64,000 bases of DNA, taken from the NCBI GenBank assembly GCA_964635565.1, contig CAZWON010000006.1:10837-74836 (forward strand), given 5' to 3'. Source of the DNA: an uncultured Planctomycetia bacterium. Lineage in GTDB: Bacteria; Omnitrophota; Gorgyraeia; Duberdicusellales; 4484-171. Shown piece by piece: positions 55,607 through 60,920 of this stretch. Under the pieces are notes generated by a model. The model was not told the DNA's origin, did no database searches, and worked only from the letters and a program-made list of their open reading frames with translations. Each line of letters starts with the position of its first letter. Positions within the stretch are counted from its first letter, which is position 1. The translations under genes were made by a program, and so were the position numbers.

Positions 55607-57001
55607 TTAGAAAGGCAACCTACCAATCATATAAAAACGTTCTTCAGGTATATGATCTACTTTTCCTTCAATAATACTTTCACATCCTAAAAGAGTCTCT
55701 TTTAAAGAGACATACTCCCCTTTCCTTCCTGTATAGGACTCAGCAACAAAGAAAGGTTGAGTCAAAAAGAACTGCAACTTTCTTGCCCGTTCATAGGTAA
55801 TTCTATCCTGGGTAGATAACTCATCTATTCCAATAACCATCACTATTCTTCGTAACTCTTCATACCTCTGAAATATCCTTATTACTTCTTGGGAAATATT
55901 ATAGTGATAGGTTCCTACAATATCAGAATCAAGATTGGCACTTGATGACTGAAGAGGATCTATAGCAGGATAAAGACCAAGCTGAATTCTTTCCCGAGAT
56001 AAAACCATTATTGCATCTAAAAAACTAAATATTGCCACTACTGCAGGGTCAGTTAAATCATCAGCAGGAACATACACTGCCTCTACAGCAGTAATTGACC
56101 CCCCTTCAGAAGTAGTTCTTATTCTTTCGTGAAATTCACTTGCTTCTGATAGAAGAGTAGGTTGATAACCTGTCTCTGAAGGAAGATGCCCTAAGAGAGT
56201 AGAAATCTCTGATCCTGCCTGAATAAAACGGAAAATATTATCAACAAAAAGAAGAACATCTTTATTCTGACGTTGAATTGATTCTGCCATCGTTATTCCT
56301 GTAATTGCTCCAATAAATCTAGCACCCGGGGGTTCATTCATCTGTCCGAAAACTAACATCGTCTTAGAAATTACTCCCAATCTCTTCAATTCAAAATAAA
56401 GCTCATTACCTTCACGAATACGTTCGCCTACACCTGCAAATACCGCACTACCTTTATGCTCTTTTATAATATTATGAATTATCTCCAGCGTTAAAACACT
56501 CTTACCAAGACCCGCTCCTCCTAAAATACCGCTTTTACTTCCTTTAACCAGAGGAAACAATAAATCTATTATTTTTATCCCTGTCTCTAAGATTTCTGCC
56601 TCTTTAGACTCTTTTTTCATAGACACACTTGTCCCTTTTTCCTCTCTTCTTATAGGGAGGCTTTCTATAGAGGTAATTTTTTCTTTCTCATCCATAGGTT
56701 CTCCTAAAACATTTATCAGGCGACCATACAGAATATCTCCTACAGGAATTTGAATCTTATTATTGCAAACAAATACTGGTGCGTTTCTTCTTATATTAAT
56801 AGTGGAATTAATTGCTATGCACCGAACTTTATTCTCCTCGATATGCTCTGCCACTTCTAAAATAACCTCCTTGCCATCTATCCTTTTTACAACAATCTTA
56901 TCGAAAATATTAGGAATATTCTCTTGACTTAAAAACTTAACATCTACTACGGGCCCCTGGACAGAAACTACATAACCCTTTACTTTATTATCGTTATTCA
57001 T
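55607..57001 (-). CDS. atpD: F-type ATP synthase beta subunit
   Basis: P-loop GGAGLGKS. Catalytic [21 protein letters not shown] in place of DELSEED. Strong end-to-end similarity to F1-beta. Confidence 0.9.
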
Positions 57002-57027
57002 ATAACCCCTTAGTTAATAACCAATTT

Positions 57028-57090
57028 ATAGCTTATGGTTTTTTAGTAGAAACTAAAAAGTTAAACCATAAGCTAAATTTTATTTGCTAT
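57028..57090. repeat. 13-bp perfect hairpin (TAGCTTATGGTTT / AAACCATAAGCTA) plus box element between atpG and atpD
   Basis: Arms at 57029..57041 and 57063..57075. Followed by aattttatttgctatttact, which is shared with 60590..60612. Confidence 0.7.
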
Positions 57091-57104
57091 TTACTACAAG
57101 TATT

Positions 57105-57959
57105 TTACTTCTGTGCTTTCCGCTCAAAAATCATTCTTGCTGCAAATAATTCTCTCATACTTCTATCGGTTAATTCATGACGGAGACGAAAATATTTATA
57201 TTTCAGTTTCTCATCCAGTTCTTCAATTTTATGAGTGCAATCTTCTAAATGCATAAATCGAGCAGCAAACTCAGCCAATCTACTCATCATAAGAATTTCA
57301 TATATTCTTTTTACTATCCAGAGATAAATTAAATATTCCACTACTTGCTCTATATAAGACTCCCAAACAAATCCATAAATATCTATTTGTTTGTTACCCT
57401 CTTTAAGGTGACCACAAGGTAGAAGGGTTTCTATCTCTACTCGCTGAACAGCTAAAGAGTACGCTTTAGGATAAATTATCTTAACTTTACCTATACTACC
57501 TTTTATCACTTCTTTTAATATATAACTCTGAAGAGCTACTGCCTGTTCACCAACATAGTCTTCTTTAATTCCTTCCATATATACACAATTTATCCCTCTT
57601 TCTCGCACATAGATTCTTCCTCTCTCTCCTACAACAATAAGCCTTCCTTTCTGTTTTGATAGCTCAATAAATGCTTTATTTATTACCTGCATATTAAGTC
57701 CCCCTAAAAGCCCTGCGTCAGAAGTGATAGCAATAACTCCTAAAAGGTTGCTTGAAGGTGTAATAAAGGGATGGGATATATCTTTTAAATCTATACTGCC
57801 AAGAAATTCTTCTACTACCCGAGAAAACTTCTCAAAAGGATGAACTTTTCCTTCAAAAGCATAAAATTGAGAAATGGCGATCCCTTTAAGAACTTTAAGA
57901 AGCTCGGCTAACCCTTTGTAGAAATCCCTATCCCTTTTTACATCAGAAATAAAAGCCAT
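57105..57959 (-). CDS. atpG: F-type ATP synthase gamma subunit (divergent)
   Basis: Length 284 aa. C-terminal helix LAEFAARFMHLEDCTHKIEEL aligns with the gamma EHAARMxAM block. Sits between alpha and beta. Confidence 0.7.
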   Translation of the reverse strand: MAFISDVKRDRDFYKGLAELLKVLKGIAISQFYAFEGKVHPFEKFSRVVEEFLGSIDLKDISHPFITPSSNLLGVIAITSDAGLLGGLNMQVINKAFIELSKQKGRLIVVGERGRIYVRERGINCVYMEGIKEDYVGEQAVALQSYILKEVIKGSIGKVKIIYPKAYSLAVQRVEIETLLPCGHLKEGNKQIDIYGFVWESYIEQVVEYLIYLWIVKRIYEILMMSRLAEFAARFMHLEDCTHKIEELDEKLKYKYFRLRHELTDRSMRELFAARMIFERKAQK

Positions 57960-57973
57960 TTATTATTATTTAC

Positions 57974-60193: not shown

Positions 60194-60251
60194 CTACTCC
60201 TCCTATTTTATTTTCATTGATACCTAATTACTTATATATAGGGTATAATCT

Positions 60252-60467
60252 TTAAGGAGTAAGAATCTGAAAAACAATCAGCATCGCAATAATAGCTAAG
60301 CTCTGGGCAAATACAAGACCTACCACCATTGCAGTAAAAATCTTAGGAGCAGCAGAGGGATTTCTCCCTAAGGCATTGATACTGGCAAATATTCCTGCAG
60401 CAAAAACAGCACACGGTCCTAAAATGCATAACCCAAAAATTACAATCAGTGCTAAATTTCTACTCAT
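60252..60467 (-). CDS. atpE: F-type ATP synthase c subunit, with Gln at the conserved carboxylate position
   Basis: Two-helix hairpin. The ALGRNP loop aligns with the RQP/RNP loop. The residue 20 positions after the loop Arg is Q55 (CAG at 60305..60303), where E/D is expected. Confidence 0.75.
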   Translation of the reverse strand: MSRNLALIVIFGLCILGPCAVFAAGIFASINALGRNPSAAPKIFTAMVVGLVFAQSLAIIAMLIVFQILTP

Positions 60468-60469
60468 AT

Positions 60470-60625
60470 TATTAGCTCAGGGCTCTTAGCTCTTGGCTCA
60501 TAGAGTAGCTCTTAGCTCATAACTCTTAGTTCCTCGCTCTTCGTTCTTGTTTAATATCAACTATGAGCTAACAGCTATGAACTATGAGCTAATTTCTATT
60601 CGCTAAACGCTATTTACTCTACCCC
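60470..60625. repeat. Composite intergenic repeat element (imperfect long hairpin plus GAGCTAATTTCTATTCGCTAAACGCTATTTACT box) between atpC and atpE
   Basis: AGCTCTTAGCTCAT ... ATGAGCTAACAGCT inverted arms. The 30-mer gagctaacagctatgaactatgagctaa nearly matches the reverse complement of 52701..52730. Box copies occur at five other loci. Confidence 0.75.
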
Positions 60626-60686
60626 ACTATCCTATACACGATACGCTCAACGCACAGCGAGATATGGTTTATCCGCTATACGCTCT

Positions 60687-60920
60687 TTACGGTTCTTCCA
60701 CAATTATTGTCGCAACGTTCTTCTCTAATTTTACCACACCCCTCTTAATTATAAATGAATTTTTATTATCAATACTGATATGGCCTCTTATTAGACGAGA
60801 GATGATATTTTTATGAAAAGGGGTAATTTCAAATACCCCCTGCTCACCAGGTAAAATAATACTCTTTGCCTTCCCTTCAAAAATTGTCTTCTGAGGGGAA
60901 ATAATCATAAATTCTAACAT
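60687..60920 (-). CDS. atpC: F-type ATP synthase epsilon subunit, N-terminal beta-sandwich domain only
   Basis: MLEFMIISPQKTIFEGKAKSIILPGEQGVFEITPFH matches the epsilon N-terminal domain. At 77 aa it lacks the C-terminal helical hairpin. Confidence 0.7.
   Translation of the reverse strand: MLEFMIISPQKTIFEGKAKSIILPGEQGVFEITPFHKNIISRLIRGHISIDNKNSFIIKRGVVKLEKNVATIIVEEP

Follow-up and report, generated by a model that had tools for sequence, protein, structure and literature searches.

Rotary ATPases are textbook ion-coupled machines, and the known exceptions, the F1-like X0 ATPases of Mycoplasma, have lost Fo entirely. Here we describe an F-type ATPase gene cluster located in a 64,000-nucleotide stretch of DNA (hereafter the window; GenBank assembly GCA_964635565.1, contig CAZWON010000006.1, positions 10,837 to 74,836) from a bacterium titled uncultured Planctomycetia and placed by GTDB in the phylum Omnitrophota. 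The cluster lacks subunit a, its c subunit carries glutamine at the ion-binding carboxylate site, and it lies between the gene of a giant surface protein and a set of pilus genes. We consider that it probably encodes an ATP-hydrolysing rotary motor that does not translocate ions and serves the pilus and giant-protein apparatus. The lineage, which occurs in 303 or more species-level genomes, retains F1, c-ring and peripheral stalk under strong purifying selection, has no a and lets the carboxylate drift. It offers a natural system for asking what a c-ring does without ions, and a route to how membrane torque could serve ends other than ATP synthesis.

An intact catalytic core with a reduced periphery

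The window is part of an 84,717-bp contig (ENA ERZ1742239 NODE_197), and our examination of this genome covered this one contig. A scan of GTDB with one genome per species and the c subunit as query returned a relative in at least 303 genomes; 80 species loci out of these 303, each with 10-kb flanks, formed our comparative set. Subunits were assigned with Pfam and NCBIfam models. Six co-directional open reading frames (ORFs) on the minus strand fill positions 55607-60920 in the order epsilon, c, b-delta, alpha, gamma and beta (Table 1). An initial annotation, made from the sequence alone, had proposed this order, with alpha and beta intact, an epsilon reduced to its N-terminal domain and a 241-residue b subunit that ends in the C-terminal domain of delta and has no delta N-domain. 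The analysis bore out each of these proposals, and the motifs singled out at the time, GERIREG and DELSTQD in beta and Q55 in c, can be read off the translations.

The P-loop (GDRLTGKT) and the arginine finger (SVSRIG) of alpha are intact. Catalytic motifs were at least 95% conserved among the 60-75 species compared, both in beta (P-loop, GVGERxREG, DNxFRF and YVPADDxTDPA) and in alpha (GDRxxGKT and LSVSRIG). Gamma is divergent and scores 79.5 bits, far under the TIGR01146 cut-off of 194; its C-terminal helix is kept across the family. The ratio of nonsynonymous to synonymous substitution rates (dN/dS), calculated against the nearest species (locus L013), was 0.013 for c, 0.046 for beta, 0.067 for alpha, 0.068 for gamma, 0.107 for epsilon and 0.16 for b-delta, and 0.07 for the neighboring anchor module described below; dS is near saturation, so these ratios are approximate. 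All six ATPase genes are under purifying selection and the cluster is not decaying.

The periphery of the enzyme is reduced. Epsilon consists of the N-terminal beta-sandwich without the C-terminal inhibitory helices and matches positions 1-79 of the 130-position model TIGR01216. Its length is 74-84 residues in 80/80 family members, and the inhibitory domain is therefore missing throughout. This fits a hydrolysis-only enzyme; short epsilons occur in some genuine synthases too, and the NCBIfam epsilon model NF009983 has 88 positions. In the b-delta protein, the b part comprises a transmembrane (TM) helix followed by a long helix, and the best-scoring model is that of the N-ATPase b subunit (TIGR03321, residues 7-232). 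An AlphaFold2 model built with 15 homologues, with a predicted local distance difference test (pLDDT) score of 88.8, has a continuous helix at residues 2-135, another at 138-159 and a beta-alpha-beta-beta-beta-alpha domain at 170-240, with no six-helix delta N-domain. Foldseek matched domain 170-240 to delta/OSCP C-terminal domains over 68-80 columns, among them the mycobacterial b-delta chain 9vkp_d (root-mean-square deviation 1.9 Å over 68 columns) and the Pseudomonas aeruginosa delta 9o19_W, in agreement with Pfam. In ordinary enzymes the alpha N-terminus binds the delta N-domain; here the first 18 residues of alpha are unconserved across the family. A search of 5.8 billion proteins retrieved 16 homologues of b-delta, the named ones being Candidatus Omnitrophota.

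Absence of subunit a

No subunit a was found in the window, where every ORF with at least three predicted TM helices could otherwise be assigned (ATP-binding cassette permeases, LptF/G, MlaE, FtsX, VanZ, LPG synthase, a PIN-TRAM protein, PilC and the 267-residue anchor protein); an a-like protein among the multi-TM ORFs was thus considered and rejected. Both sides of the remainder of the 84.7-kb contig were also free of it. Upstream of the cluster the contig holds just the 267-residue protein and a gene of at least 4010 codons reaching the contig end, and past the other window end it carries no ATP synthase genes. The absence of a within or next to the cluster, claimed by the initial annotation, accordingly extends to the whole contig, including the immediate outside of the window, where a canonical atpB and atpH had been envisaged as the case that would overturn the claim.

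We then searched the window and 92 related loci by tblastn with the E. coli AtpB and an N-ATPase a subunit as probes. Nothing was returned at E≤1 except one 31-residue chance match (E=0.29). The AtpB probe was validated by a positive control in which it detected the a subunit of an N-ATPase operon (E=4e-13). The comparison with the atp loci of relatives, also suggested by the initial annotation, gave the same gene order and no a within ±10 kb of the cluster in 80/80 species loci. Out of 25 multi-TM ORFs in these loci, 21 overlap known cluster genes, mostly PilC, and the other four comprise two sensor proteins and two proteins without a Pfam match, with no a-subunit match among them. We likewise rejected the idea that the epsilon-c or c-b spacers conceal an atpB or a decayed form of it, as these spacers contain stops in all forward frames and are unrelated between loci.

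Repeated replacement of the c-ring carboxylate

The c subunit of the window has Q55 at the ion-binding carboxylate site, a residue that we take to be the equivalent of D61 in E. coli c, by our own count of a gap-free alignment with the E. coli sequence. Glutamine is the classic neutral mimic of protonated glutamate. Among the 80 species loci this position is occupied by Q (n = 39), E (n = 34), A (n = 3), S (n = 2), G (n = 1) and F (n = 1), hence by a non-carboxylate residue in 46/80. The 120 closest metagenome clusters gave a similar picture (Q in 64, E in 52, M in 2 and Y in 1), and Q is present in 4 divergent loci. Fitch parsimony on a neighbor-joining (NJ) tree of alpha and beta from 58 loci placed E at the root and required at least 13 changes at this site. 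As a control, we searched the family profile against 1.84 billion cluster representatives and treated matches below 60 bits as outgroup. Outgroup c subunits had E or D at the aligned position in 125 of 131 residue-bearing domains (about 95%), and several of the remaining cases are fragments or small divergent members of the family itself. A protein search found 405 homologues of the c subunit, including ones named Candidatus Omnitrophota.

There is little or no variation at F53, A54, L57 and A58, which flank the site, or in the loop GRNPSxAPK. Judged by this pattern of conservation, the carboxylate of the c-ring is dispensable and other parts of the subunit are not. With Q, A, S, G, F, M or Y at the site, ion carriage is impossible even if an a subunit is present.

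The c-profile search also retrieved tandem double-hairpin c subunits with family-level scores (P0193 and P0200, 138-140 residues) and very long proteins of 9-15 c-like hairpins (P0209, 1139 residues, and P0216, 968 residues), all of which keep the glutamate. The latter are possibly genetically fused rings.

A conserved locus between a giant protein and pilus genes

The surroundings of the cluster are highly conserved. In 80/80 species loci the genes follow on one strand in the order giant-protein C-terminus, 267-residue module, epsilon, c, b-delta, alpha, gamma, beta, MshE/PilB ATPase with PilZ, PilC, Peptidase_MA protein and GspG-like pseudopilin; elements are missing only where the fetched stretch was short. 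The flanking ORFs of the cluster had been correctly described as a membrane-anchored protein with a signal peptide, of 267 residues, and a TPR protein, but the giant protein, the pilus genes, the Omnitrophota affiliation and the published type of locus had escaped the initial annotation.

The giant protein contains Ig-like Kre9_KNH repeats (Pfam E=7e-57) and a Reelin subrepeat-B, and its C-terminal 690 residues are conserved upstream of the ATPase in 64/80 species loci. Between it and epsilon lies the anchor module, whose identity with the final ~235 residues of the giant ORFs at other loci is 43-57%; 39 loci have it fused to the giant ORF and 25 have it as an ORF of its own, which is also the arrangement here. 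Its AlphaFold2 model (pLDDT 84.7) had no match in the PDB below E=0.17, and the module belongs to no Pfam family.

On the other side of the cluster, 711 bp separate the end of beta from the start of PilB. The TPR gene in this interval is lineage-specific and outside the conserved locus set; other loci carry at this position one or two small free-standing MshEN-domain proteins. An MshE/PilB ATPase follows beta in 52/52 loci that reach far enough. MshEN and PilZ are modules that bind cyclic di-GMP, and since the assembly ATPase combines both, this suggests that the pilus apparatus is under cyclic di-GMP control. The remaining set comprises the Peptidase_MA protein, a GspG-like major pseudopilin, two minor pilins (one GspJ-like), a GspK-like protein, a PilM-PilN fusion and PilO/GspM. 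The Peptidase_MA and GspG genes are conserved downstream of the ATPase in the species loci. The annotated part of the pilus gene set showed neither a secretin nor a PilT-type retraction ATPase.

The PilM-PilN fusion is a single protein of 495 residues (46600-48087), and an aspartyl-tRNA synthetase gene directly follows the pilus set. One metagenome-assembled genome (MAG), JAQURC01, carries two full giant protein - ATPase - pilus loci on different contigs (L022 and L026), both with a Q-type c.

Table 1. Features of the ATPase locus in the window (positions within the 64,000-nucleotide stretch).
Feature	Position	Strand	Description
Giant surface protein, C-terminal part	61827-64000	-	gene of at least 4010 aa, continuing past the window to the contig end
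Anchor module	60923-61726	-	267 aa; signal/TM helix, beta-sandwich, helical bundle, C-terminal TM helix, short cytoplasmic tail
epsilon	60687-60920	-	77 aa; PF02823 only, residues 3-75, E=2.9e-13
epsilon-c spacer	60468-60686	.	219 bp, non-coding; stops in all three forward frames
c subunit	60252-60467	-	71 aa, two-helix hairpin; PF00137 24.7 bits (cut-off 24)
b-delta(C-domain) fusion, peripheral stalk	59468-60193	-	241 aa; PF00430 (residues 7-132) and PF00213 OSCP
alpha	57974-59461	-	495 aa; Pfam E=2.5e-72; passes TIGR00962 (554.7, cut-off 484)
gamma	57105-57959	-	284 aa, divergent; PF00231 E=1.6e-32
beta	55607-57001	-	464 aa, catalytic site intact; Pfam E=5.9e-66; passes TIGR01039 (585.9, cut-off 462.85)
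TPR protein with signal peptide	54947-55579	-	TPR Pfam families; present in 2/80 loci only
MshE/PilB-type assembly ATPase	52788-54896	-	T2SSE E=1e-131; N-terminal MshEN, C-terminal PilZ
PilC/GspF platform protein	51479-52687	-	T2SSF E=2e-61; in 48 loci
Remaining pilus/type II secretion-like set	46050-51478	-	Pfam and gene calls

Relation to known F-type ATPases

Many Omnitrophota, including Candidatus Velamenicoccus archaeovorus LiM, were previously reported to encode a non-respiratory or 'symbiotic' F-type ATPase beside type-4a pilus genes, found on 57/66 Omnitrophota contigs, with the pilus-linked alpha placed outside the respiratory clade and grouped with Mycoplasma types 2 and 3 (Seymour et al. 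2023, PMC10066038). The window is an instance of this locus type: it shares the phylum, an F-type ATPase within 10 kb of pilus assembly genes and giant ORFs, which are common in the genomes concerned. Gamma, c and b-delta score far under the equivalog cut-offs, which lends indirect support to a possible place of its alpha in the 'symbiotic' clade. The main text of that report and the supplementary text searched mention neither the c-ring nor protons nor atpB, and they do not describe the missing a, the variable carboxylate, the b-delta(C-domain) stator, the short epsilon or the upstream giant protein with its anchor module. Similarly, in the literature searched we found no description of a missing a, a drifting carboxylate, an N-ATPase-like stator, a universally short epsilon or an anchor module before epsilon. 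Papers on the giant genes mention type II secretion-like neighbors and not the ATPase. In a survey of 176 complete Omnitrophota genomes alpha and beta were detected in 125 and gamma in only 30, and the complex was called incomplete (bioRxiv 10.64898/2026.06.07.730766); we attribute the low gamma count to the divergence of this subunit (79 bits against a cut-off of 194). As regards annotation, pipelines call these alpha and beta subunits ATP synthase, and energy metabolism can consequently be mis-inferred.

The stator resembles that of N-ATPases, whose operon (atpDCQRBEFAG, with AtpR as a hallmark) has no atpH; its long AtpF can be aligned to delta at the C-terminal end (Dibrova et al. 2010, PMC2881411). 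Both systems lack a separate delta gene and have a long b with a delta-like C-terminus, and the only homologue of b-delta outside the family in the 5.8-billion-protein search sits in a genuine N-ATPase operon (L093, carrying PF09527 and PF00119). Deletion of Q-R-B and a shift of D to the last position would turn the N-ATPase order into C-E-F-A-G-D, the gene order of the cluster. The order had initially been described as matching neither the canonical nor the N-ATPase operon; it does differ from both, but it is not unrelated to them, being one gene move plus deletions away from either. In contrast to N-ATPases, the cluster has no AtpQ, AtpR or a, and its c subunit lacks the Na+/H+ binding set. 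Between epsilon and c, the position of AtpQ and AtpR, the spacer is non-coding and holds no small membrane ORFs. All NCBIfam cut-offs for N-ATPase subunits (TIGR03321-03324 and TIGR03305) were missed: b scored 54 against 225, alpha 520 against 750, beta 510 against 752, gamma 33 against 282 and c 17 against 131. Alpha and beta gave 366 and 414 bits with the one N-ATPase compared, against about 380-500 and 410-500 bits with canonical F1. The similarity of alpha and beta does not support direct descent from N-ATPases, to which these subunits are no closer than to canonical F1 and with which the stator design alone is shared. Finally, N-ATPases are ion pumps, and the cluster cannot be one.

A close functional parallel is offered by the F1-like X0 ATPases of Mycoplasma, of which Type 2 is the M. 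mobile gliding motor and Type 3 is linked to, and required for, the surface MIB-MIP system (PMC3369863, PMC12994834). Their clusters hold seven genes, including one for a 12-TM protein and others for unique subunits, and no c, b or delta (PMC12994834). As in the window, a non-chemiosmotic F1-derived ATPase is encoded beside a surface-protein system, and the delta-binding N-terminal segment of alpha is absent or unconserved. The M. mobile system, moreover, includes very large surface proteins. In contrast to Mycoplasma, the cluster keeps c, b-delta and a recognizable gamma and epsilon, and no 12-TM ORF was found in the window. Membership in the type 2/3 family was rejected on the grounds of model cut-offs and subunit content. 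The cluster failed the MMOB1660/1670 and MSC_0618/0619 family cut-offs; scores of alpha and beta fell below the cut-offs for NF045863 (413 against 600), NF045858 (441 against 850), NF045936 (310 against 520) and NF045934 (400 against 570). In a comparison with PDB entries, beta gave 368 bits to M. mobile G1-beta and 410-500 bits to canonical F1; overall, canonical F1 gives both alpha and beta higher scores than do the Mycoplasma models or the structure from M. mobile.

Canonical F1Fo synthases share with the cluster the alpha and beta equivalogs, a recognizable gamma, epsilon N-domain, c hairpin and b helix, and the alpha-gamma-beta order. The cluster differs from them in the lack of a, the c carboxylate, the delta N-domain and the epsilon C-domain, in having epsilon first and in being embedded in a pilus and giant-protein locus.

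A putative rotary motor without ion translocation

The absence of a at every locus and the repeated replacement of the carboxylate by residues unable to bind H+ or Na+ imply that ion translocation is not the selected function. Intact catalytic sites together with a full rotor and stator make selection for ATP-driven rotation very probable. That the cluster always lies between the giant protein and the pilus machine further argues that the complex is a component of, or accessory to, the surface apparatus. We thus favor a probable ATP-hydrolysing motor dedicated to that apparatus. The cluster encodes a structurally complete F-type rotary ATPase, in which alpha3beta3 forms the head, gamma-epsilon the shaft and b-delta(C-domain) the stator, along with a c-ring. 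On this reading it has lost the ion path, as there is no a and the c carboxylate is dispensable. Most likely it would work in the hydrolysis direction only, with ATP turning gamma-epsilon and, attached to it, a c-ring that is chemically inert within the cytoplasmic membrane. Torque or conformational work might then be passed to a membrane partner encoded in the locus, either the anchor module or the pilus platform, and the process served might be attachment, surface movement or predation.

More specifically, the c-ring itself could be the output, the inert ring passing torque via the anchor module or PilC to the giant Ig-repeat fibre or the pilus. We advance this only tentatively, as a somewhat doubtful possibility. 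If true, it would represent a separate co-option of F1Fo for mechanical work beside that in Mycoplasma, and the first with the c-ring as output element. More generally, three hallmarks of Omnitrophota, giant proteins, pilus machines and an odd ATPase, come together in one conserved locus. The predation/attachment hypothesis for these bacteria gains a concrete, testable machine, and the phylogenetic label 'non-respiratory' becomes a concrete mechanistic hypothesis.

Several points weigh against a dedicated motor of this kind. The system is known here from sequence and predicted structures. Glutamate is kept at the c site in 34/80 species, so ion binding is possible there. The search for a in this genome covered the 84.7-kb contig, and it is possible that atpB lies elsewhere. 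The connection of the c-ring and stator to the anchor module, PilC and the giant protein is drawn from co-location, which may reflect co-regulation only. Moreover, the locus already has its own assembly ATPase (MshE/PilB), which leaves the task of a second motor unexplained, and the NJ tree behind the parsimony count is crude.

Alternative explanations

One alternative, which we regard as unlikely, is that the F1 head and gamma act in the manner of FliI-FliJ-FliH as a secretion or unfolding ATPase, for which the c-ring and b/delta would be a membrane dock only and which would energise the export or membrane insertion of the giant protein or pilins. FliI, FliJ and FliH are indeed homologues of alpha-beta, gamma and b-delta, alpha and beta also score against the FliI/SctN models (160-200 bits, against cut-offs of 380-715), a giant, substrate-like gene lies directly upstream in all loci, and a purely structural role would suit an inert c-ring. 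However, the export ATPases are single homohexamers with FliJ/FliH-like partners and an export gate. The cluster has separate alpha and beta, a full gamma, an epsilon and a highly conserved c (dN/dS 0.013), and such a whole rotor is not obviously needed for docking. No FlhA/SctV-like export gate was found in the locus, and signal-peptide-like N-termini in part of the anchor family suggest Sec-dependent export.

Two readings had been put forward in the initial annotation: the one we favor, in which the membrane sector of an F1-like ATPase does not translocate ions, and a split operon with atpB elsewhere. Under the second, the cluster would be part of the regular chemiosmotic ATP synthase or ion pump of the cell, and atpB, perhaps along with atpH, would sit at another place in the genome. 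Several bacterial groups are known to have split atp operons, alpha and beta clear the NCBI atpA and atpD equivalog cut-offs, E occupies the c site in 34 of the 80 species, and our search was confined to one contig of the genome. Against this stand the Q55 found here and the lack of a carboxylate in more than half of the species (46/80, compared with about 95% E/D in other c subunits), as well as the absence of a within 10 kb in 80 species and on the contig. Furthermore, a fixed place between a giant protein and pilus genes is unexpected for a housekeeping enzyme, JAQURC01 carries two copies, and the pilus-linked alpha falls outside the respiratory clade (PMC10066038). V/A-type ATPase subunits, in turn, are present in 70-99% of the class Gorgyraeia outside Pluralincolimonadales (bioRxiv 10.64898/2026.06.07.730766). 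Overall, we find a split operon improbable.

A decaying relic, in which an old ATP synthase operon would have lost atpB and be on its way to pseudogenes, might be read from the joint loss of a, the delta N-domain, the epsilon C-domain and the c carboxylate and from the repeats, and even a toxin-antitoxin pair, between genes in some loci, but it is exceedingly improbable and already effectively refuted by the conservation data: the six ORFs are intact wherever the fetched stretch covers them, gene order is invariant, a c relative occurs in 303 species genomes, catalytic motifs are at least 95% conserved and dN/dS is 0.013-0.16.

Intergenic repeats and other observations

The epsilon-c spacer of the window consists of direct repeats with a 14-nt period and inverted arms of 33 nt (GAGCTAAGAGC-type), and the spacers between epsilon and c in other loci are unrelated sequences. 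Across loci, the epsilon-c and c-b spacers hold palindromic or tandem repeats, or inserted genes. The short GAGCTAAGAGC / AGCTCATAG-type motif, arranged as nested direct and inverted repeats in the epsilon-c spacer, was also found at 52710-52769, in the PilB-PilC spacer, and at 40189-40199, with 8 matches against 1.15 expected. The motif looks like a genome-specific intergenic element akin to repetitive extragenic palindromic sequences or miniature inverted-repeat transposable elements. Two other loci, L007 (10220-10562 and 12760-13361) and L008 (10913-11487), harbor long tandem or palindromic arrays, for example of CACGGATTAAACGGATTAAAAAAGACA units, in the c-b and alpha-gamma spacers; these are unrelated to the repeats of the window. 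Invasion by intergenic repeats seems common in these operons. In L082 (1537-2999), a nucleotidyltransferase/HepT-like toxin-antitoxin pair and a DUF6036 nucleotidyltransferase lie between c and b-delta, with the flanking genes undisturbed. A scan of the cluster for promoters and terminators gave counts no different from those of shuffled sequence.

The genomes carrying the 80 loci are mostly titled Omnitrophota, and some are titled Planctomycetia, PVC group or Margulisiibacteriota. Many MAGs with an Omnitrophota-type locus are titled 'uncultured Planctomycetia/Planctomycetales bacterium' (including L013, L014, L019 and L024), and one 3.3-kb contig is titled Margulisiibacteriota. These Planctomycetia, Planctomycetales and Margulisiibacteriota titles are probably labelling or binning artefacts.

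Finally, the far end of the contig encodes a 763-residue TPR and glycoside-hydrolase (GH2-C/GH72-like) protein (positions 592-2883 of the window) and a second protein of the glycoside-hydrolase type (L094, 12360-14721), with a sugar ABC transporter adjoining. The presence of these genes fits the theme of cell-wall degradation proposed for Omnitrophota.

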